Assembly: GCA_021158265.1 (NCBI GenBank)
Contig: JAGGUY010000001.1
Location: forward strand, 1-48,052
DNA from: Thermoprotei archaeon
Lineage (GTDB): Archaea; Thermoproteota; Thermoprotei_A; EX4484-217-1
Direction: 5' to 3'
DNA length: 48,052 bases
In this document: positions 4,803-27,358 of the stretch, piece after piece
Position numbering within the stretch: the first letter of the stretch is position 1
Layout of the letters: every line of letters starts with the position of its first letter
Position numbers and translations under genes: made by a program
The notes under the pieces: model-generated
What the model saw: the letters and a program-made list of their open reading frames with translations, nothing else
Database searches by the model: none
Told to the model about the DNA's origin: nothing

Positions 4803-5090
4803 TTAAAACCACTAAAAACATTTAAAAACAAAGCCTTTTATAAACCTTACATTCAAAACATAGCTTTCTGTTTAAACGTTCAAACATCCGATCATAGTTT
4901 TCATTAACCATTTAAACCTTCAATACAAGTTCTATTTAGAACCATGGACCATGGCTATAGAGACTATTTAGTGAGTAATGGTGTTTCGGTTTCTTTAGCT
5001 ACTGAAGCAGAAACATTGAACTGTAGCTTTTCATATTGTTCTACTTTAGGCAATAATGTTTACAGTGTGGTGTGCTAATGTTTTTCATGA

Positions 5091-5265
5091 GTATGCGGGG
5101 TGGTAGGGGCTTTGCTTCAAGCCCCGCTGGATATAACGTAGATGGGAGCCTTGTGCCGTTGGGCTCGACCCTCACCCATGAACCTACGGGATGAACATCC
5201 TGGGGTGAGCCCTCCGGGCAAGGCGGGAACCAATGAAAACCCTATCACAATGAAACAAAAATATA
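5091..5265 (+). ncRNA. candidate structured RNA or RNA-like element, copy A of an unassigned paralogous pair (partner at 20410-20600, opposite strand)
   Basis: About 61% G+C by hand count over 5091-5230, against flanks of roughly 20-30% G+C. Three predicted hairpins (5095-5127, 5142-5179, 5183-5219) plus a terminal pairing GGUAGGG(5102-5108)/CCCUAUC(5240-5246) followed by ACA. Alignable along its length to the reverse complement of 20410-20600. Confidence 0.45.
5141..5184 (+). repeat. near-identical core of the inverted repeat pair (partner 20499-20543)
   Basis: gatgggagccttgtgccgttgggctcgaccctcacccatgaacc compared with the reverse complement of 20499-20543: 43 of 44 aligned bases identical, plus one single-base indel. 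Confidence 0.9.
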
Positions 5266-5571
5266 TGGAGCGATACGGTTTAAGGAAGCGGATACTTAGC
5301 ATTACTCTGGCTCTATTATTATGATTACCTTTGCTCTCCTTCCATGGTGTTTCTTTAGTTTTTCTTGAAGCTAAGCTTATTAAATTTGCCTCACAAACCT
5401 ACTCTACTTAGGAGCTGGGGGAATGAGGATAGAGGAACTATTTCTGGTTTTTGGGTCTCTATAGGTTTTTGCATGTTTCTTCTTGTTTTGAATGGTATTG
5501 GGTATGCTGATGTTGTGTGTCTTGAGGCGTGCTCGGTAAACTTATAGGTTCATAGTGCTTATGAGCTTATT

Positions 5572-5703
5572 GGCGACCCCTGGTTTCCGATACCCGCTCT
5601 ACTTAGCCGGGAAAAACCGTAATGAACCACCCTACGAAAACCGTAGGCGGGGAACAGTTAGAGTGGTCGCTAGAGTCTAGAGTTCGCCTCTTTATATGTT
5701 TTT
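5572..5703 (+). ncRNA. candidate small structured RNA, family unassigned
   Basis: G+C-rich island. Nested pairings: GCGACC(5573-5578)/GGUCGC(5665-5670), CCCGC(5593-5597)/GCGGG(5647-5651), and hairpin CUACG-aaaac-CGUAG (5632-5646). A TATA-like cttata lies at about 5541-5546, roughly 26 nt upstream. A T5 run at 5698-5703 lies downstream. Strand and ends are inferred only. Confidence 0.3.
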
Positions 5704-5940
5704 GGTCATCGGCTCATCCCTTTTAGTCCGCTTTTCGGTCAGGGTTTCATCCGTCATCAAGGCGAATGCCCCCAACTCCCAGCCAACCAGAGATGTGGGG
5801 CACTGTGGTTCGATGGATGCTCCGAAGGCCCCCGATCCAGATGCAAACCCAAGAAGGAATGAAGGGAAAGCCTGAGCCTACACTAATCATAAGCAGCCCA
5901 GGTAGCTAAAATATCTAAACTAACGGGCACGGGCAACCAC
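5704..5940. other. second G+C-rich structured island, strand and identity unassigned
   Basis: Local stems include GCCCC(5768-5772)/GGGGC(5797-5801), GGAU/AUCC around a CCGAAGG segment (about 5813-5847), and GUUCGCC(5683-5689)/GGCGAAU(5761-5767). No long ORF. The TATA-like element at 5955-5966 could drive the minus strand, and the T5 run within it could terminate the plus strand. Confidence 0.3.
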
Positions 5941-6020: not shown

Positions 6021-7037
6021 ATGTCGCTTCGTGTAGCTAATAATGTGCTTGAGCTTATAGGAAATACGCCAATGGTTAGATTAGCGAAAATAGATAAGAA
6101 CTATCCATTCGAAATATGGGCGAAATGCGAATTCATGAACCCAACTGGTAGTGTAAAGGATAGAATGGCCTACTATATAATTAAGGAAGCTGAAAAACAA
6201 GGTAAACTGAAACCCGGAATGACTATTTTAGTGCCAACAACAGGTAATACAGGAATAGCCTTTGCAGGATTAGGCGCATATATGGGCTACAAAATAGTAA
6301 TCGTAATGCCTGTGGAAATGAGCTACGAAAGAAAACTTCTCGACATGCTTTACGGCGCCGAACTAATCTACACTCCGGGGGGAGAAAGCGATGCTATGGG
6401 CGCCCTAGAATACGCTAGAAAACTAGCTAGAGAAAACCCCGAAAAATACTTCGTAGCGGAGCAATGGGATGACGAAGCCAACGTTAAAGGACATTACGAA
6501 ACAACGGGTAAGGAAATAATAGAACAGCTTGATCCAAAAGAAATAAGATTGTTTACAGCAGGCATAGGTACCGGAGGAACACTTGTAGGCGTAGGTAAAA
6601 GGCTCAAAGAAGCAAACCCGAACATTAAAGTTGTAGCTATGGAACCTGCTGAATGCCCAACAGCAGCATACTGGTTCTGGAAGAAAGGGAAGGCTTGGGG
6701 AAGACATGAAATAGAAGGTATAGGCGACGGATTCGTTCCAGTAATAATACAAAACCATGTAGACGTAATTGACGACTTCGTTCTTGTAAGTAGTGACGAA
6801 GCCATAGAAATGGCAAGGAAAATAGCTAGACTAGAAGGATTAGCCGTAGGTATATCGTCTGGAGCGAACGTCGTAGCAGCAATTAAAGCCGCAGAAAAAT
6901 TCAACATAAAAGACGGTAAAGTAGTAACAATGCTACCAGACTATGCTGCAAGATATTTCAGCACAAGACTCTTCCTTAAGAGAAGACTTACACCAGAAGA
7001 ACATAGAAGAATGCTTGAACTTGCACGTACGGACTAA
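6021..7037 (+). CDS. cysK: PLP-dependent cysteine synthase / O-acetyl(phospho)serine sulfhydrylase (fold type II)
   Basis: 338 aa. PLP-lysine motif NPTGSVKDRMA, glycine loop GIGTGGTLVG, and SSGANV. Confidence 0.85.
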   Translation: MSLRVANNVLELIGNTPMVRLAKIDKNYPFEIWAKCEFMNPTGSVKDRMAYYIIKEAEKQGKLKPGMTILVPTTGNTGIAFAGLGAYMGYKIVIVMPVEMSYERKLLDMLYGAELIYTPGGESDAMGALEYARKLARENPEKYFVAEQWDDEANVKGHYETTGKEIIEQLDPKEIRLFTAGIGTGGTLVGVGKRLKEANPNIKVVAMEPAECPTAAYWFWKKGKAWGRHEIEGIGDGFVPVIIQNHVDVIDDFVLVSSDEAIEMARKIARLEGLAVGISSGANVVAAIKAAEKFNIKDGKVVTMLPDYAARYFSTRLFLKRRLTPEEHRRMLELARTD

Positions 7038-18623: not shown

Positions 18624-19601
18624 ATGGTTCTTCTCTCAGTATCAAATCTTAAGAAATATTTTCCGCTACAGAAAAGCTTCATAGAGCGGGTGATTAGCAG
18701 AAGAAAACAGTATGTAAAAGCTGTGGACGGAATATCATTTATTATAAGAGAAGGCGAGGTCTTCTCCCTTGTTGGAGAATCCGGTTGCGGAAAGACAACC
18801 ACGGGAAGACTTATTGTAAGACTCGAAACCCCTGACTCAGGCAAAATAGTGTTTGATGGCAAAGATATAACCTTTGCTAAGGAGAAAGAGCTAAGGCCTC
18901 TTAGAAGGAAAATGCAAATAATTTTCCAGGACCCATATGCTTCACTTAATCCCAGAATGACGATTGGTGATGCTATAGCCGAACCCCTAATAATACATGG
19001 CATAGCTGATAAGAGGGAAGCTAGGGAAAAAGCCTTAGAAATGCTTGTGAACGTCGGATTAACTCCTCCTGAGCTTTTCTATAAGGCTTATCCACATCAA
19101 TTATCCGGGGGCCAGAGGCAAAGAGTAGTTATTGCTAGAGCAATGATTCTAAAACCCAAATTTATTGTAGCAGACGAGCCTGTTTCAATGATTGACGTTT
19201 CCCTTCGTGCTTCAATACTTAAGCTTCTCATGAAGTTCAAGAAGGACTTTAATTTAACAATGCTTTTCATAACACATGACTTAGCTGTTGCAAGGCTGAT
19301 TTCTGACGTAGTAGCAGTAATGTACCTTGGAAAAATAGTGGAGATAGCACCAGTAGACGAACTTGTCGAAAATCCGTTACATCCGTATACTAAGGCATTA
19401 CTTTCCTCGGTACCTACAATAGTACCCCAAATGAAGAGAGAAAAAATAATTCTTAAAGGCGATGTACCAAACCCCATAAACCCTCCTTCCGGATGCAGAC
19501 TGCATCCAAGATGCCCCTTAGCAATTGAGCGCTGTAGTAAGGAAGAACCTAAACTAAAATATGTTGGAAATAATCACTATGTAGCATGTCATTTACTTTG
19601 A
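18624..19601 (+). CDS. peptide ABC transporter ATP-binding protein (DppF/OppF type)
   Basis: [28 protein letters not shown] and PSGCRLHPRCP. Confidence 0.9.
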   Translation: MVLLSVSNLKKYFPLQKSFIERVISRRKQYVKAVDGISFIIREGEVFSLVGESGCGKTTTGRLIVRLETPDSGKIVFDGKDITFAKEKELRPLRRKMQIIFQDPYASLNPRMTIGDAIAEPLIIHGIADKREAREKALEMLVNVGLTPPELFYKAYPHQLSGGQRQRVVIARAMILKPKFIVADEPVSMIDVSLRASILKLLMKFKKDFNLTMLFITHDLAVARLISDVVAVMYLGKIVEIAPVDELVENPLHPYTKALLSSVPTIVPQMKREKIILKGDVPNPINPPSGCRLHPRCPLAIERCSKEEPKLKYVGNNHYVACHLL

Positions 19602-20386
19602 ACATTTAATGAAAACTCCTTAGCAACAATTAATCCGAGGAGAGTGACCACTACCCCTAAAATGCTTCCCTCAAGGCCAAATTTTCCTCCAGTAATTATA
19701 TCGTTAGATATATTATAGTTTAATGTGAAAAGAGAGTGCTTGTATTCATGACCACTTACTGGAAAGCCTAGCAATACTTGCGCATAATTCCAAAAGGCAT
19801 GGTATAGTACTGGATAAACTATGCTTCCCCCATAAACTACCATTACCGATAACAATATGCTGGCAAGAAATAGCTGAATAAATGAAATAATGTTGTAGCC
19901 AGGATTCGAGATGTGTAAGAGGGAAAAGAGAAGAGAAACAATAAATATCGATGTTCTTATCCCTAACGATTCAGAAAGCTTAAACAGAAGATATCCTCGA
20001 AAGATAGCTTCTTCGCCAAGAGAGGAAATAAGGATTATTATGAAATACATTATCAAGCTTGCTACGTGAAAATTGCTAACCATGCTAACCTTATATATCC
20101 TTAAGCATGTACCTAAGATTAATGCTAAGAATATAAGGGCGAAAGCTAAAAATGCTGAGAAAATAGCGTATGGAATCTTTATTGATGTTGAGAAACCGTA
20201 TTCTTCAAACTTTCTTCCCTCAGCCTTTACGAAAACGTATATTACAGTTAGCCAATAAGGAACTAAATATGCCTCATAAACTTCCTCTAAACCTATTATT
20301 TTCAAAATATGCACTATTAATGCTGAACCCAGAAATGTTACGATAAAGAAAAATAGGGAAACTACGGTGCTTTCGCTCTTATCCAC
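19589..20386 (-). CDS. CPBP family intramembrane glutamic endopeptidase (CAAX-protease-like)
   Basis: Polytopic. Motifs GEEAIFRGYL, SLLFSLLHISN and YHAFWNY. The ORF-track start at 20542 runs through the G+C-rich repeat element and is probably spurious. GTG complement(20384..20386) is proposed as the start. Confidence 0.75.
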   Translation of the reverse strand: MDKSESTVVSLFFFIVTFLGSALIVHILKIIGLEEVYEAYLVPYWLTVIYVFVKAEGRKFEEYGFSTSIKIPYAIFSAFLAFALIFLALILGTCLRIYKVSMVSNFHVASLIMYFIIILISSLGEEAIFRGYLLFKLSESLGIRTSIFIVSLLFSLLHISNPGYNIISFIQLFLASILLSVMVVYGGSIVYPVLYHAFWNYAQVLLGFPVSGHEYKHSLFTLNYNISNDIITGGKFGLEGSILGVVVTLLGLIVAKEFSLNVQSK

Positions 20387-20409
20387 GTAACACCTGTTTG
20401 TTCCTACTG

Positions 20410-20600
20410 CTTTATTTTGTTTGGAACTGTTGCATAGTGTGTCTGCGGTAGGGGCTTCCACTTCGCCTAGAGGGTTCACTTCACGGCTCATCCCTATGGG
20501 TTCATGGGTGGGGGTCGAGCCCAACGGCACAAGGGCTCCCATCCACGCTTACCCCCTTGCGGGCTCAGAGCAAAGCTCCCATCACCCGCATACCCGCGAG
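20410..20600 (-). ncRNA. candidate structured RNA or structured 5' leader, copy B of the unassigned paralogous pair
   Basis: G+C-rich island homologous, as reverse complement, to 5091-5265. Hairpins at 20559-20589, about 20500-20542 and 20466-20499. A well-placed TATA box lies about 28 nt upstream on the minus strand. The element ends about 25-55 nt before the proposed CPBP start codon. Confidence 0.5.
20499..20543 (-). repeat. near-identical core of the inverted repeat pair (partner 5141-5184)
   Basis: Reverse complement reads gatgggagcccttgtgccgttgggctcgacccccacccatgaacc. Confidence 0.9.
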
Positions 20601-20615
20601 AATCATTGACTCAGC

Positions 20616-20625
20616 ATATTATAAA
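20616..20625 (-). promoter_or_regulatory. TATA-box candidate driving copy B and/or the CPBP gene
   Basis: The minus strand reads tttataatat. Its centre is about 28 nt upstream of GUAUGCGGG, the homologous 5' end of both copies. Confidence 0.45.
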
Positions 20626-20691
20626 CGTATTGCTCGGAACAAAAAGATATAAAAGGACAATGAAAAGCTACAGTCTAAAGTTTCTGTTCTT

Positions 20692-21471: not shown

Positions 21472-22470
21472 GTGTTATTCGAAAAACTCGTTACAAGCCA
21501 TGTAGGCAGTTTTCCCCTAACACATAGCTGGGATAATGTTAAGAAAATATTTAAAGAACTTATCAATTTAGGCATAGATATTCCACCATATCCTCAAATG
21601 AGAAGTTTCATAGACATATATCTTGAACCATTAGCTAAAGCCGGAATAATTTCCCTGAAGGGTTCAAGATACTTTGCCGATGAAAAAATTCTCCGCGACA
21701 CTAAGCCTCCTACAGCTGAAATCCCTGAAGCAAAAATAGTCTCTGAAATCTCAGAGAAAATAGGGTTTAAGGGAATTCTTAGAGCACCCATAACTGGGCC
21801 ATTCACTCTATCTTCAAGAATATATTTTTCCGAAAGTACAAGCCTTTCAGCAACAGCTATGGCCAAAAAGGATCTTGTACTAAACTTTTTCGCAGAATAT
21901 GTTAGGTCTTTTGTGAAGCAAATGGTTAATTTAGGCTATAAATTCATCGTCATAGACGAGCCTATGCTTGCAAACATTATCGGACGAAGAATAATATTGT
22001 ATGGATATAGAGCTGAAGACATAGTAGAAGTTTATTCAAAAATTCTCGAACCAGCAAAGCATAAGGGTGTAATTAGGGGAACACATGTTTGCGGAAGACT
22101 CCCTAAGAGGCTCCCAGAAATACTTGCTGAAGTTGATGTTTTAGATGTTTTAAACCATGAATTTAAGGATTCTCCAGAGAACTTCGAGGTTTTCACCAAA
22201 GACTTGCTTGAAAAACACGATAAAATACTTAGCCCAGGAATAGTTAGCTCTAAAAGGCTTAGAGTTGAAAGTTTCGAGGAAACATACTCGTTACTCTCAA
22301 GAATTCTTAATAAGTTTGGAGAGAGAGCAAATATTATTTCAGCAGATTGCGGTTTCGGGGCTCTTAGGACAGGAGAAGTTACAGAAGAGGAAGCCTATGA
22401 AATAGCTAAGAAAAAGCTTGAGCTGATAGTTAAAGTTGTTAGGAAAGCTAATGAGGAGTTTAAAGGGTAA
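21472..22470 (+). CDS. single-domain (core) MetE-family homocysteine methyltransferase
   Basis: 332 aa, GTG start. MetE catalytic-domain motifs: HVGSFPLT, VIDEPML, a zinc site THVCG ... NHEF ... ADCGFG. The size matches archaeal core-MetE and not two-domain MetE. Confidence 0.8.
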   Translation: MLFEKLVTSHVGSFPLTHSWDNVKKIFKELINLGIDIPPYPQMRSFIDIYLEPLAKAGIISLKGSRYFADEKILRDTKPPTAEIPEAKIVSEISEKIGFKGILRAPITGPFTLSSRIYFSESTSLSATAMAKKDLVLNFFAEYVRSFVKQMVNLGYKFIVIDEPMLANIIGRRIILYGYRAEDIVEVYSKILEPAKHKGVIRGTHVCGRLPKRLPEILAEVDVLDVLNHEFKDSPENFEVFTKDLLEKHDKILSPGIVSSKRLRVESFEETYSLLSRILNKFGERANIISADCGFGALRTGEVTEEEAYEIAKKKLELIVKVVRKANEEFKG

Positions 22471-22471
22471 A

Positions 22472-24211
22472 ATGGTAAAGGTAACTGTTAAGCCTCAGAA
22501 TGTATCAGTAGATGTTAGTAAAGGAACATTGCTAATTGAAGCTATAAGAAAAGCTATTCCATGGTTTCCATCCCCATGCGGAGGCTTAGGTATTTGTGGT
22601 AAATGCAAAGTCAGAATAATTAAGGGGAAACTTAGTAAACCTACATCAAATGAGAAATTACTAAACATCTTACATGAAGGATTTAGATTAGCTTGCCAAA
22701 CAACAGTGTTTGATGACACTATTGTTGAAATATCTTATAGAGAACCTATAGCTTTCCCAACAATTTCGACTATTGAAATTAAAGTTCCTGTTAAACCGTG
22801 GATTTCTTGGAGGACCTTTGAATCCTCAAAATATTCTAAACAGTTCGACAAGTTTGTTCTTGAAGAAGTTGGTGCTAGGTATTTAAGCTATGCCGCAGCA
22901 AGGGAGTTAATTAACGTTAAACTAAATGGTAAAGCTACCATTATGGCTTATGGAGAAGCAGTCTATAGAGTTGATACATACCATTTTGAACCCTTAGGCT
23001 TAGCTGTTGACATTGGAACAACAAAAATAGCCGGATACCTTATTGATTTAAGTACAGGCACTACTTTAAATGAAGGATTTACGCTAAATCCCCAACTAAA
23101 ATACGGTGACGATATTGTTTCTAGAATGACCGTAGCCCTAATGGATAAGAGGAAGCTTTATGATATGAGAAACATTACTTTAAAATCAATTGAGGATTTG
23201 GCTAAGAAGCTGGCTTTAGAAGTGAAGAAACCTGTTACAAACATTACTGCTATATCTATTGTTGGAAACACTGCAATGCATCATATTCTTTTAGGGCTAG
23301 ACTTAAGTGGTATAGCATTTGCCCCCTATATTCCAAAAGAATCATCTCCAATAATCGAGTATGGAGGTAACTTAGGATTTAAAATCCTAAGAAGAACCAT
23401 GGTTTACATAGCCCCTGTTATTTCAGGATATGTTGGTGGAGATGCTGTTGCAACATTATTGACAATTCATTATTTAAATCCCAAACTACCCTCCTTAGTC
23501 ATTGATGTAGGTACGAATGCTGAAATAGGCTTATTTTTAAAGGACAAAATTGTTGTTGCTAGCGCGCCAGCGGGACCAGCAATCGAGGGTCATGTTACTT
23601 CAGGTTTAAAGGGGGTTCAAGGAGCAATATATGATGTTGAAGCTGAGAAAGTAGGCGATAATGTTAAGTTTAACGTAAAAGTTCTCGGTGAAACGGAGCC
23701 TTCAGGAATTAGTGGAAGTGGTGCAGTAAGTATCGTATCCGAACTTTTAAGAATAGGGGCAATTACGGCTACAGGCAAACTTAAAATAGGAAATTATGAT
23801 GAAAGAGGTGTAAGGTACGTTAAGATAGTTGATTCTAAGAAACCCATAGTATTTACTCAAACTGACATTAGGGAGATTCAGAAAGCTAAGTCAGCAATTC
23901 AAACTACATGGCAATTGATGCTTGAGGATGAAGGTCTATCTGAAGATGATTTAGAATCTGTTTTCATAGCCGGAACTTTTGGTTCGTATCTAAAACCCAT
24001 ACATGCCCAAAGGATAGGTCTCATACCTAAAGTGGATTTAGATAAGATATTCATTATCGGTAATGCTGCCGGAGCCGGAGCTAAGTTAATGTTGATAAAT
24101 GGGGAGGCTAGAAGGAAAGGTGAGGAAATAGCTCTTAAGGCTGAACACAGAGTTTACGCTTCTACTGATAGATTTAGAAAGTTATGGATTAAAAATTTAA
24201 ATTTCAAATAA
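22472..24211 (+). CDS. RACo-type reductive activator of corrinoid proteins (2Fe-2S ferredoxin domain plus ASKHA/DUF4445 ATPase domain)
   Basis: N-terminal plant-type ferredoxin motif PCGGLGICGKCKV...LACQT. ASKHA-like segments DIGTTKIAGYL, GNTAMHHILLGL and IDVGTNAEIG. ATG 22472 follows the upstream stop (22468-22470) by one base. The ORF-track start 22436 is probably too early. Confidence 0.8.
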   Translation: MVKVTVKPQNVSVDVSKGTLLIEAIRKAIPWFPSPCGGLGICGKCKVRIIKGKLSKPTSNEKLLNILHEGFRLACQTTVFDDTIVEISYREPIAFPTISTIEIKVPVKPWISWRTFESSKYSKQFDKFVLEEVGARYLSYAAARELINVKLNGKATIMAYGEAVYRVDTYHFEPLGLAVDIGTTKIAGYLIDLSTGTTLNEGFTLNPQLKYGDDIVSRMTVALMDKRKLYDMRNITLKSIEDLAKKLALEVKKPVTNITAISIVGNTAMHHILLGLDLSGIAFAPYIPKESSPIIEYGGNLGFKILRRTMVYIAPVISGYVGGDAVATLLTIHYLNPKLPSLVIDVGTNAEIGLFLKDKIVVASAPAGPAIEGHVTSGLKGVQGAIYDVEAEKVGDNVKFNVKVLGETEPSGISGSGAVSIVSELLRIGAITATGKLKIGNYDERGVRYVKIVDSKKPIVFTQTDIREIQKAKSAIQTTWQLMLEDEGLSEDDLESVFIAGTFGSYLKPIHAQRIGLIPKVDLDKIFIIGNAAGAGAKLMLINGEARRKGEEIALKAEHRVYASTDRFRKLWIKNLNFK

Positions 24212-24240
24212 AAACTACCGACTAAGCCTAGGAGAGGTGA

Positions 24241-25233
24241 TTGCGTGAAATGTTATTCTCAAGGGAACCTTTAAGACCATTTAGATTCAAGGTTCCTCAG
24301 AAAACGTTTAGAATAGGAAGTGTCATTTTTGGTGGAGAACCTGGAGAGAGACCTACCGTTCTTGTGGGTAGCATTTTTTACCTTGGGGACAAACTTGTTA
24401 TAAATCATGATGAAGGAGTTTTCGATAAGGAGAAAACGAAGGAAGCAATAAAGTATGCTGAAGAGGTAGCTGAGAAGTACTCTTTACCCTTAGCTATAGA
24501 CTTGGTTGCTTACTCTGAAAAAGCTATGGAAAACTATGTTCCATTTGTAGCTGAAGTAACGGAGGCACCGATATTTTTAGATGGTGTTGAGGAGAAGGCT
24601 AGGATTGCCGCGTACAAAATATCTCACGAAATAGGTATTACTGAAAGGGTTATTGGAAACGCAATATATACTCACTCAAAAGAGAGCGAACTAAACGCCT
24701 TAAAAGAGTATGAAATAAGGAACGTAGTACTTATGGCATTTGATGTAGCAAACCCTATGAAAAGCATGATGCCTAAGGATAGATTAGAAATTCTGAAAAA
24801 CCAGCTCATACCTAAAGCTGAGGAAGCACAAGTAAAACAGCCTTTAGTCGATGTAGTAGTTCTGGATCCAGCTTCAATAGCTATTAGTGCAGCATCGGTT
24901 TTGAAAATAAAGGAGGAAACGGGGTTACCTGTAGGTTGCGCACCAGCTAACGCCTTAGGTCCCGTTACTAAAGCAGCATTTGGTGTCGAAGGTATGAGCG
25001 GAATACATGGTGGAACGGCAGTTTTTCTCCAAATGTTTGGAACAGACTTCATATTCTACGGACCAATAAGAAGAATAAAGTATGTGGCGCCAGCAGTTGC
25101 AGTAGCTGATGCTTACCTAGCTTATCTAGCGAAATTCGAAGGAAAAAGGCCTCCTAAGAAGCATCCATTCAATACATTACTTAGGAAGCTTCAGAGAATG
25201 TTTACAGGAATTGAAGTATGGCAGCCAAAATAA
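24241..25233 (+). CDS. MtrH-like methyl-tetrahydro(methano)pterin:corrinoid methyltransferase
   Basis: 330 aa. FGGEPGERPTVLVGSIFY...GVFDKEK, GLPVGCAP and IFYGPIRRIKYVAPAVAVAD closely follow the MtrH pattern. TTG 24241 or ATG 24250 may be the start. Confidence 0.85.
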   Translation: MREMLFSREPLRPFRFKVPQKTFRIGSVIFGGEPGERPTVLVGSIFYLGDKLVINHDEGVFDKEKTKEAIKYAEEVAEKYSLPLAIDLVAYSEKAMENYVPFVAEVTEAPIFLDGVEEKARIAAYKISHEIGITERVIGNAIYTHSKESELNALKEYEIRNVVLMAFDVANPMKSMMPKDRLEILKNQLIPKAEEAQVKQPLVDVVVLDPASIAISAASVLKIKEETGLPVGCAPANALGPVTKAAFGVEGMSGIHGGTAVFLQMFGTDFIFYGPIRRIKYVAPAVAVADAYLAYLAKFEGKRPPKKHPFNTLLRKLQRMFTGIEVWQPK

Positions 25234-26099
25234 ATTATGAGAGAGTAGAAATCCTAAGTGAACTGATAGGTAAATTAGGATTAGAAACGATTTACTTTAT
25301 CGAAGAGAAAGATAAACAGCTAGAAGCTATGAGGAATCTTTATGCTAAAACAGGACATGTAGGTTATGTTTGTTTATTAGCTGTTTCAAATGCTCTAATA
25401 AGCTATAAGCTTTCGGTGAAAGGAGAAGAGTACTGGTTAACATTTTCTAAAGAACTTTCTAAAACAAAACCTTCACTAAATTACGCCTTAGAAAACATAG
25501 TTAGATTTCTTAGAAAACACAGATTAAATGTCATTAATTTGGAACAGAAAATCAATAGGTTAAGAAGGCTTTATTCATCAAACATAGTGCATAAAATCTT
25601 TAACAACCCTGAAGCCTATGCGAGAAACATAGTTAAACTTTGGAAGGATATAAGTGAAGCACTTCATACCGACCCTAAATCTAAGACCATAGTTTTCTCT
25701 ATCAAAATGTTTTACTATGCATACTATGCTTCAACAGATATTCGCATAAGATTGCCCATGGAAATACCTATACCTGTTGACTTCAGAGTTTCAATAATAA
25801 GTTTAACTTCAGGGTTATTACAATTTAAGCGCTCTATGATGTTCTCAGATAAAGTAAAACTACTTCTTAGTAAATATGGTGATGCTGTAAGAGAAGCCTG
25901 GAATGAAGTAAGTGAAAGAGCAAAAGTTCCTCCTCTGAACCTTGACGCCCTAATTTGGGTTTTTGGAAGAAACGTCACTCTTCAATGTTCTAAAGAGAAG
26001 ATTGTACGTAAAACATTCGAATACTTACGAGAACTCTTCGATAGAGAACCTGACACATTAATGAAGAAACTTGTTTATGAGTTCTTCAAATACTGCTAA
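25218..26099 (+). CDS. archaeal 8-oxoguanine DNA glycosylase/lyase (AGOG family)
   Basis: SNALISYKLSVKGEEYW, KTIVFSIKMFYYAY, EIPIPVDFRV and VPPLNLDALIWVFGR match the pattern I recall for Pyrobaculum AGOG. The start overlaps the mtrH-like stop by 16 nt. Confidence 0.85.
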   Translation: MAAKINYERVEILSELIGKLGLETIYFIEEKDKQLEAMRNLYAKTGHVGYVCLLAVSNALISYKLSVKGEEYWLTFSKELSKTKPSLNYALENIVRFLRKHRLNVINLEQKINRLRRLYSSNIVHKIFNNPEAYARNIVKLWKDISEALHTDPKSKTIVFSIKMFYYAYYASTDIRIRLPMEIPIPVDFRVSIISLTSGLLQFKRSMMFSDKVKLLLSKYGDAVREAWNEVSERAKVPPLNLDALIWVFGRNVTLQCSKEKIVRKTFEYLRELFDREPDTLMKKLVYEFFKYC

Positions 26100-26218
26100 T
26101 TGAATAGGATATTACATCTAGTAATATTTTTCATTACGCTAAACTATCCTATGTAATGTTATCATTAATATTTAAAAGCCTCTCACAGTCCATAATACGT
26201 TAAAAGGCTAATGGTGCA

Positions 26219-27358
26219 TTGGCTATGGTAGTGCCGGGGATTAAGTGCCAACCCATACCTCCATGTCCTAAGAGAATGCTCAATGGTCCATGTGGTGGTG
26301 TTAGAGAAGGCTATACATGTGAGGTTGATGGTAGAAGATGTGTATGGATTGATGCCTTTATAGAAGCTAAAAGAAGGGGTAATCTTAAGCCATTCACTGA
26401 AGTACTTCTTGATGCTAATTTTAAAGTTAGAGATTATAAGCCAAAAACAAGAGAACCAAAAAGTAAGGTCATGAAGCTCCTTTTAGAGAGAAAGTATATT
26501 TTAGCTTTTGAAGTTGAAACCGGAAGAAACATTGACTTAACAAGGTTTAAAGAACTTTCACGAGAACTTTCACCATATTATGATACTTTAACATTTACAG
26601 ACAATCCTGTGGGAAGCATAGAAATAGACCCTTTAGCTCCTGCAATAATTTCTCAAAACAATGGTGTTGAATCAATACTTCATGTTACATGTAAGAATAG
26701 AGATAGAGTTGCTTTAACATCCTACCTTATGGCAGCAGCTGCCGCAGGAATTAGAAACATAATAGCTGTTACAGGAGATTGGCCCTTCCTATCAGGAGCT
26801 AAATACATGTTTCCATCATTCGATTTAGATGCTGTAAGACTAATTTACTTAGCAAGACTTATGACGGATCTTCATGTTGATTTCTCAGGTAGAAGAATTG
26901 AAGGTAATCCTTTCTTCCATGTTTTTACAGCGTTTAATCCGCATTTTGCACCTTTAGAGCTGGAAGTGCTTAAGTTAATTAAGAAGATTAAAGCTGGAGC
27001 TGAGGCTGCATTTTCACAACCAATATATTCAGTATTAACTTGGAGGAAAGTTAAGAAGTATTTTAAAGAGTATGGTATTAAAGTACCCGTGGTTGTAGGG
27101 CTAATGCCTGTTAAATCTATTAAAATGGCTAAGGTTCTAATGAGAGAGTTAGGAATCCATATACCGGAGGAATATGTTAGGTTCTTAAATGGCAATAAGA
27201 GTTATGAGGAAATATACAGTTTTAATATTGAATATTTTAGAAAGCTTGCTGAAAACCTTATGGCAGAACATGATGGTATCAGCGGATTTCATGTGTTAAC
27301 ATTTGGAGATTTAAAGCTTGCAAGCGAGCTAGGTAGGTGTTTAAGGAAATTAAGATAG
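26219..27358 (+). CDS. methylenetetrahydrofolate(-like) reductase with fused N-terminal MetV-type Cys-rich domain (MetV-MetF fusion)
   Basis: N-terminus CPKRMLNGPCGG...C..C (MetV / MTHFR_C-type motif), followed by a MetF TIM-barrel-like body (TFTDNP, HVTCKNRDR, IIAVTGD). TTG 26219 or ATG 26225 may be the start. Confidence 0.75.
   Translation: MAMVVPGIKCQPIPPCPKRMLNGPCGGVREGYTCEVDGRRCVWIDAFIEAKRRGNLKPFTEVLLDANFKVRDYKPKTREPKSKVMKLLLERKYILAFEVETGRNIDLTRFKELSRELSPYYDTLTFTDNPVGSIEIDPLAPAIISQNNGVESILHVTCKNRDRVALTSYLMAAAAAGIRNIIAVTGDWPFLSGAKYMFPSFDLDAVRLIYLARLMTDLHVDFSGRRIEGNPFFHVFTAFNPHFAPLELEVLKLIKKIKAGAEAAFSQPIYSVLTWRKVKKYFKEYGIKVPVVVGLMPVKSIKMAKVLMRELGIHIPEEYVRFLNGNKSYEEIYSFNIEYFRKLAENLMAEHDGISGFHVLTFGDLKLASELGRCLRKLR

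Follow-up and report, generated by a model that had tools for sequence, protein, structure and literature searches.

The two inverted, G+C-rich elements in the window (the whole 48,052-nt stretch of DNA analysed here) very probably descend from a tnpB gene's 3' end together with the adjoining transposon right end. Both copies would represent the last ~65 tnpB codons and the right end of a transposon of the IS607/IS200-IS605 superfamily. In intact elements, the sense transcript of this stretch folds into the omega-RNA (reRNA) scaffold bound by TnpB, and the ~16 nt after the right end serve as the guide. In place of the rest of tnpB stands a ~90-nt AT-rich arm whose TATA-like box lies ~25 nt upstream of the scaffold start. 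The result is a ~290-bp unit that looks like a stand-alone, PATE-like omega-RNA gene. At least four loci in one clade of thermophilic, uncultured Thermoproteota appear to have received the unit, by insertion or by being carried along. On balance, we favour the reading that the copies are tnpB-less omega-RNA/right-end modules which are still constrained as RNA today. From sequence we infer that the arm drives transcription, that the RNA folds as an omega-RNA and that a TnpB encoded elsewhere still uses it in trans. The identification removes a candidate "new structured RNA" and ties it to the well-understood TnpB omega-RNA/right-end class.

TnpB binds an RNA of ~150 nt that corresponds to the tnpB 3' end together with the right end and takes its guide from ~16 nt of flanking DNA (Karvelis et al. 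2021, PMC8612924). Archaeal tnpB genes have sense-overlapping RNAs, called sotRNAs, at their 3' ends (PMC4615843). PATEs (palindrome-associated transposable elements) are gene-less derivatives of IS200/IS605 elements, often encoding omega-RNAs that are used in trans (Meers et al., PMC10055086).

Extent of the copies and homology to tnpB

The initial annotation described two homologous copies in inverted orientation, and both are present, copy A on the plus strand (5091-5289) and copy B on the minus strand (20593-20396). BLASTN of the window against itself aligns them at 72% identity over 221 nt (E=6e-20), and each strand of the window has exactly one occurrence of the 21-mer TTGTGCCGTTGGGCTCGACCC, where shuffled sequences give an expectation of 0.00. 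The core, GATGGGAGCC(C)TTGTGCCGTTGGGCTCGACCC(T/C)CACCCATGAACC, is near-identical as claimed, with 44 of 45 positions identical, one mismatch and one single-base indel; among copies A, B and C, which share the arm, it is 98% identical, and other parts fall to 65-70%. The G+C of copy A, reported as about 61%, is 54% over 5091-5265 and 62% over 5094-5232, and the surroundings, put at 20-30%, are at ~31%. The end proposed at AAACAAAA proved to be no natural boundary; homology runs on to ...AGGAA(N)AAC, a right end common to both copies (A ~5289, B 20396), with GG next. Homology also begins ~85-100 nt further upstream than reported, within the AT-rich arm (A ~5008, B ~20686). The right-end motif, AGGAA(N)AAC before GG, is common to A, B, the further copies C and D described below and the plasmid pGE2 (GGGAGAAAC before GG). 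Table 1 lists the features.

Table 1. Coordinates of the features of copies A and B and of their surroundings in the window.
Feature	Position	Strand	Basis or remark
Mosaic insertion with copy A, 981 nt	4959..5939		Absent from the orthologous intergenic region of relatives
AT-rich upstream arm, copy A	5008..5090	+	Homologous to arms of B and C (alignment)
Degenerate TATA-like box TTTACAGT	5059-5066	+	25 nt before GTATGCGGG; same spacing as TTTATAAT in copy B
G+C-rich body, copy A	5091..5231	+	tnpB 3'-end remnant, predicted omega-RNA scaffold; aligns with pGE2 tnpB codons ~365-429
H1, copy A	5095-5127	+	
Core, copy A	5141-5184	+	
Helix b, copy A	5149-5157/5217-5226	+	
Helix a, copy A	5161-5171/5202-5212	+	
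A/C-rich tail and right end, copy A (...AAGGAAGC)	5232..5289	+	GG next at 5290-5291
T-rich stretch TTTCTTTAGTTTTTCTT	5350..5366	+	Candidate archaeal terminator for putative copy A transcript
47-nt box	5678-5724	-	Inside G+C island 5570-5887
Second tnpB 3'-end remnant, translation MTDETLTEKRTKRDEPMTKNI then stop	5678..5757 (peptide 5757..5695)	-	Different tnpB family
CPBP/Rce1-like membrane protease gene	19589..20386	-	Real start GTG 20386, AGGTG upstream; directly downstream of copy B
Insertion consisting of all of copy B (arm, body, tail), 293 nt	20396..20688	-	Between HTH_45 stop codon and CPBP start
AT-rich upstream arm, copy B	20597..20688	-	Alignment with arms of other copies
TATA box TTTATAAT	20625..20618	-	25 nt before GTATGCGGG (20593)
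G+C-rich body, copy B	20451..20593	-	Match to pGE2 tnpB 3' end, 71% over 148 nt
H1, copy B	20589..20559	-	
Core, copy B	20543..20499	-	
Helix b, copy B	20534..20526/20467..20458	-	
Helix a, copy B	20522..20512/20494..20485	-	
Tail and right end, copy B (...GCAGTAGGAACAAAC)	20396..20450	-	Aligned with pGE2 ...GCGGTAGGGAGAAAC holding the tnpB stop TAG

A BLASTN search of both inserts against plasmid records (7.3 Gb) returned a single match, the Pyrococcus abyssi plasmid pGE2. For copy B the match has E=2e-8 and falls within a same-strand CDS annotated as TnpB; for the copy A core it falls there too, with 86% identity over 43 nt. Along its whole length the G+C-rich body corresponds to the stop region and last ~65 codons of the 429-aa tnpB, and in a multiple alignment it is collinear with pGE2 through H1 (GUGAUGGGAGC...GCUCC), the core, CCA.UGAA.CCAU, a long hairpin, ..AAGGUGGAA..CCCUACCGC and the tail. 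The pGE2 core GAUGGGAGCCCCGUGCCGUUGGGCUCGAC agrees with the window copies in 28 of 30 positions (counted manually from the alignment). The pGE2 stop codon falls within ...AAGCGGTAGGGAGAAAC before GG, and the copy B counterpart is ...AAGCAGTAGGAACAAAC. At the protein level, the translation of copy D, LKALWGDGSFAPSPVGLNVDGSPMPLGSTPAHEPIRIPKSLWARWKSL, is 62.5% identical over 48 aa to the C-terminus of pGE2 TnpB, and tblastn aligns DGSLVPLGSTLTHE of the copy A body with ADGSPVPLGSTATNE; all that is left of this C-terminus in copies A, B and C is DGS.VPLGST.THEP, and these copies have frameshifts. The parent element on pGE2 is an IS607-type arrangement, in which a serine recombinase gene (Resolvase, PF00239) is followed by an overlapping tnpB (PF07282).

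None of loci A-D is adjoined by a tnpB gene, and tblastn with two TnpB queries found no tnpB in the window besides a 21-aa remnant (5757..5695). A cognate full-length TnpB was not found in this lineage, the sole full-length relative being the one on the Pyrococcus plasmid. The upstream arms have no similarity to the left end of the pGE2 element, upstream of its recombinase and tnpB genes. The TATA box of copy B and the TATA-like box of copy A both end 25 nt before GUAUGCGGG, and the arm of copy A may act as a promoter. The T-rich stretch that follows copy A, where TTTCTTGAAG is also present in copy C, is a candidate archaeal terminator for a putative copy A transcript.

A 396-aa TnpB gene (PF07282), absent from the window, is found in related contigs L040-L042 at 1-966 on the minus strand, where it adjoins a PTS_2-RNA gene. 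Its product is 29% identical to pGE2 TnpB over residues 163-332.

As first reported, the element could be assigned to no known RNA family. Rfam gave 0 gathering-level matches in the window and nothing credible at E<=10 on either copy; a permissive threshold yielded nothing credible on copies C and D, and ARAGORN found 0 tRNAs in the window. Since the tnpB 3' end of pGE2 has no Rfam match either, the missing match of the copies is attributed to Rfam having no model for this omega-RNA. For the same reason, islands of this archaeal omega-RNA family will recur as orphans in scans of AT-rich thermophiles. The initial annotation read the element as a structured RNA, which would here mean an independent family of host small-RNA genes: a trans-acting regulatory RNA with no transposon tie. 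Such a gene would fit the G+C-rich islands in the ~31% G+C intergenic DNA of a thermophile, the TATA-like box upstream and the empty Rfam search, but it is largely refuted by the same-strand homology to the tnpB 3' end and right end of pGE2. Copy D keeps the TnpB reading frame, the window copies are missing at orthologous sites of close relatives and the contexts of the copies are unrelated, which leaves a host small RNA highly improbable.

Individual RNA classes were also considered and rejected. A box C/D or kink-turn motif does not fit the internal loop of H1, which is GAUG/GA with a 0-1 nt bulge, and GGUA/AA in copy A. For an H/ACA guide RNA there is no ACA after any stem, and Rfam snoRNA models reached only E>5. 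By eye, the defining features of RNase P are missing (a CR-I-like GAGGUGGAAGUCC is seen in copy D only), as are those of SRP helix 8, the hammerhead (GAUGAG...CGAAG) and a tRNA-like T-arm. Within the window, no complement of the apical loop was found as a target.

Insertion sites and copies in related genomes

The window is ordinary chromosome, carrying genes for leucine and lysine biosynthesis, molybdopterin (MoeA), ABC transporters and methyl transfer, and no integrase or transposase gene was found in its 48 kb. Its proteins cluster at 90% identity with those of 'Desulfurococcales archaeon ex4484_217_2', and metagenome contigs from hot springs and hydrothermal sites carry the locus as well. 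The ex4484_217_2 MAG group encodes a split reverse gyrase (10.1101/524215), which fits a thermophile.

Copy B is present in the window, in L024-26 and in L043 (relatives with CPBP proteins 92% and 86% identical). In five relatives (L027, L028, L029, L031 and L044), the site is empty, with 10-16 nt between HTH_45 and CPBP (...GATGAAAGGGAGTGTTACGTG...); their CPBP proteins are 78, 72, 66, 54 and 53% identical to that of the window. The target before insertion reads AAAG/GGAG. Copy B would thus have split a formerly adjacent HTH_45-CPBP pair and would now supply the sequence directly upstream of CPBP.

The position of copy B raises the question of a cis-regulatory leader, a riboswitch-like 5' UTR, of the CPBP protease (B) or of cysteine synthase (A). 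Between the end of copy B and the CPBP start codon there are 9 nt and no terminator, and in L043 the arm and tail (90%) are better conserved than the body, suggesting a promoter/leader role for CPBP. However, the CPBP orthologues at 78-53% identity lack the element and abut HTH_45, copy A lies 730 nt from the next gene, C precedes an opposite-strand tRNA gene and D precedes other non-coding sequence, so that a dedicated leader is even less probable than a host small RNA. Donation of a promoter or leader to CPBP by insert B, as a side effect, is plausible, given the 9-nt distance and the better conservation of arm and tail in L043. The copies thereby form a small data set on transposon ends that donate promoters or leaders to host genes, CPBP being an example.

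Copy A lies in a longer insertion. The distance from the PALP gene to the gene for a 210-aa membrane protein is 1219 nt in the window and 244 nt in L037/L038 and L040-L042. The closest relative has copy B and an empty copy A site (244 nt), and three more distant relatives likewise have 244 nt. The junctions read CATGGCTAT before AGAGAC... and ...GCAACCA before CGTAATGA.

These junctions coincide with short internal repeats: GGCTATAGAGACTATTT at 4953 recurs at 5427, and CGGGAAAAACCGTAATGA at 5608 recurs at 5930, the latter resembling the empty site TATGAAAACGTAATGA. The repeats may reflect stepwise or tandem insertions, and their statistics are weak. ATGAAA is an apparent target motif at both empty sites (A and B), which is suggestive and statistically weak.

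Further copies were sought in metagenomes with a degenerate core pattern, which retrieved five contigs: locus B again, L033, locus C (L032/L035) and locus D (L034). Locus C lies between a PIN-like gene and a tRNA-Val gene. The genomic contexts of the copies are unrelated. No more copies were found by nhmmer in 404 kb of related contigs; an exact-core scan of representative genomes gave only a chance match in a bacterial MAG, viral contigs scanned with core, H1 and 47-nt-box patterns gave chance matches only, and a phage collection gave no match. A protein search with a 72-aa ORF over copy C found no homologue and no words shared with database proteins.

Locus B has been damaged in a population variant (L033) and in a relative (L043). 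In L033 (locus B, Ga0190313), 41 nt of scaffold are deleted (~window 20573-20533) between two GATGGGAGC direct repeats, which takes out half of hairpin H1. In L043, a decayed copy B (B2, 1890-2095; CPBP 86% identical) has changed mostly from G/C to A/T: identity to the window is 74.5% in its body and 90% in arm and tail (arm 90.5%), with third codon positions of neighbouring genes at ~84%. B2 shows that the body decays quickly without constraint, and together with the 41-nt loss it indicates that locus B is dispensable in some lineages.

Several smaller features surround copies C and D. In L035, a tRNA-Val(GAC) gene (6513-6587, minus strand; Rfam 61.8 bits) adjoins copy C, and a weak box C/D sR5-like candidate lies nearby (6677-6734, plus strand; 26 bits, E=0.015). 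In L034, 32-nt inverted repeats at 2201-2232 and 2612-2643 (72% complementary, with an 18-nt core at 94%) flank a ~445-nt unit with copy D. The G+C-rich block UUGGCGACCCCUGGUUUCCGAUACCCGCUC is found in the window at 5568-5599 and in L034 at 2317-2286 (78% alike). Downstream of the copies, it follows D by 70 nt and A by ~280 nt, and its orientation relative to the copy is the same in both cases.

Insertion A holds a second remnant, which belongs to another tnpB family: 20 nt of it exactly match an L034 TnpB fragment at its stop region, and 13 of the remnant's 21 residues are identical to the C-terminus of that TnpB. Rfam gave no match on the G+C island around it (5570-5887). This second island is probably a tnpB 3' end with its omega-RNA/right end, on the minus strand and convergent with copy A. 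Kinship of the copies with this other, L034-type family was rejected, Smith-Waterman z being mostly <2.5 and not significant, and the idea that a left-terminal block (4959-5015) is the right-end terminus of an L034-type insertion sequence was unsupported.

A 91% identical 47-nt box occurs ~280 nt upstream of copy C (L035 6001-6047, L032 833-879), so that remnants of both tnpB families occur together at two of the four loci. The relatives of the L034 TnpB fragment (P0152-P0199) are all short (48 pieces of 67-193 aa, PF07282 C-terminal), and no full-length member is among them. The family may be largely degraded or split in these archaea; alternatively, the word-based search picked up fragments only.

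RNA structure and constraint on the copies

Three helices keep their pairing as the sequence changes. The outer stem of H1 is CCAGAG/CUCUGG in pGE2, GCGGGG/CCCCGC in A, GUGGGC/GCCCGC in C and AUGGGG/CCCCGU in D, with three pairs altered on both sides between pGE2 and copy A. The hairpin after the core is CCAUCUGGAU/AUCCAGAUGG in pGE2 versus CCAUAAGGAU/AUCCUUAUGG in D, a difference of two adjacent compensatory pairs. The long-range helix b (CCYUGUGCC with GGCRARGNRGG) is 100% paired in nine sequences while five of its eight pairs vary, with one C-G to U-A double change, and its strain-level substitutions are all U.G to C-G switches. Covariation was assessed on only ~12 sequences; H1, helix b and the pGE2/D hairpin are supported, and no full fold is claimed. 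MFE z-scores are weak (-1 to -1.5, with only D reaching -3.8) and alike on both strands, and the RNAalifold energies of the two strands are a near tie, the consensus fold shifting with the sequence set. The proposed structure has 47 unpaired cells on the complementary strand versus 9 on the sense strand, on which it was itself derived. Most likely, the sequence specifies a structured RNA on the proposed strand. The original proposal of a structured RNA gene thus survives as to likely structure, the helices keeping their pairing, but not as to a free-standing novel RNA gene, the body being a tnpB 3' end and right end.

Identity as an omega-RNA region would account for the G+C richness, the nucleotide-level conservation across frame shifts and the compensatory helix changes. 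The G+C richness itself follows from the need of a structured RNA in a thermophile for stable helices.

The open reading frames over the element, 5142..5324 (plus) and 19589..20542 (minus), are real, and their translations diverge as described. The accompanying claim that selection does not act on a protein is right for the present copies: frameshifts separate them, core substitutions in the open frame are 5 non-synonymous versus 1 synonymous (read by eye from variants), and Pfam has no match on any overlapping ORF. It is incomplete for the ancestor, which was protein-coding too, and 48 residues of copy D are still in the TnpB frame. One might read a small protein gene, or a genuine N-terminal extension of CPBP, from frames that are open across the core in several copies and from the 317-aa form of CPBP called in two assemblies. 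Yet the 1-nt indel shifts the frame between A and B, the core substitutions are mostly non-synonymous, the ORF has no Pfam match and shares no words with database proteins, and the extension into the element is not retained in L043; PF02517 homologues of CPBP have 264-272 aa. Of the readings weighed here, this one is the least credible.

Whether the modules are still constrained is a closer question. The copies could be inert relics, dead tnpB fragments that have no present RNA function, whose core reflects recent origin or gene conversion and whose G+C is inherited. This reading, which we consider possible but rather unlikely, draws on B2 decaying faster than synonymous sites, on the internal deletion in L033, on insertion A being a junkyard that also holds the second, unrelated tnpB 3' remnant, on the cognate TnpB not being found nearby and on the weak thermodynamic z-scores. 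Against it, the changes in helix b are all compatible with pairing, the 25-nt spacing from TATA to start is retained in both A and B, and the core remains at 44/45 identity although A, B and C diverged by ~30% after loss of tnpB. That this divergence postdates the loss follows from the non-tnpB arm that all three share. Core identity at such divergence, set beside the quick decay of the B2 body, speaks for selection that has continued, the simplest form being use in trans as omega-RNA. Part of the identity of the A and B cores could come from gene conversion inside one genome.

Comparison with known systems and possible function

The copies resemble the omega-RNA/reRNA of TnpB in their same-strand homology to the last ~65 tnpB codons and the right end, in being G+C-rich and probably structured, in the conservation of nucleotides across frame shifts and in the locus-specific sequence after the right end. 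They differ in that no tnpB ORF precedes them, an unrelated AT-rich arm with a TATA-like box standing in its place, and in being known here from sequence alone. PATEs are likewise short, protein-less units with an omega-RNA region at several loci (~290 bp here), present or absent among close relatives (empty B sites in L027-L031 and L044, empty A sites in L037-L042). Unlike PATEs, the nearest intact relative is of the IS607 type, with a serine recombinase and not a Y1 transposase, and copy A sits within a 981-nt mosaic and not in a clean unit. As to the ends, the right end matches pGE2 and the arm does not, and neither subterminal palindromes nor a common target motif were demonstrated.

G+C-rich non-coding RNA genes have reportedly been found in AT-rich hyperthermophiles. 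The copies share with these the G+C island (62%) in ~31% G+C intergenic DNA of a thermophilic archaeon; in contrast to such cellular genes at conserved loci, they are transposon-derived and polymorphic for insertion.

After the right end ...AAAC, the sequence is GGATACTTAGCATTAC in A, AGGTGTTACGTGGATA in B, GGTAGCAGAAGGTGAT in C, GGTAACCAGTTATAAA in D and GGTTCTCTTAAGATTA in pGE2, all different, which is compatible with a role of this locus-specific sequence as a putative guide. All the right ends are followed by GG, and IS607 reportedly prefers GG as its target; the GG and the copy B target site fit IS607 target choice in what is a tiny sample. Neither A nor B has conserved terminal hairpins or inverted repeats.

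A more far-reaching possibility is that the units are promoter-driven, stand-alone omega-RNA genes which are under selection and are used in trans by a TnpB, or by a TnpB-derived RNA-guided regulator, elsewhere in these genomes. We regard this as doubtful, at a lower probability than the inert relics. Each copy would then carry a different guide, that of copy B being the CPBP start region, and the family would exemplify, in archaea, an omega-RNA gene separated from the gene for its nuclease. The core, nearly identical in a Pyrococcus plasmid and in uncultured Thermoproteota and kept after the loss of tnpB, hints at trans-acting omega-RNAs.

Apart from the copies, positions 21472-27358 of the window hold a methyl-transfer cluster, with a Meth_synt_2 family protein, a RACo-type corrinoid activator, MtrH and MTHFR, which suggests methylotrophic or C1 metabolism in this uncultured archaeon.
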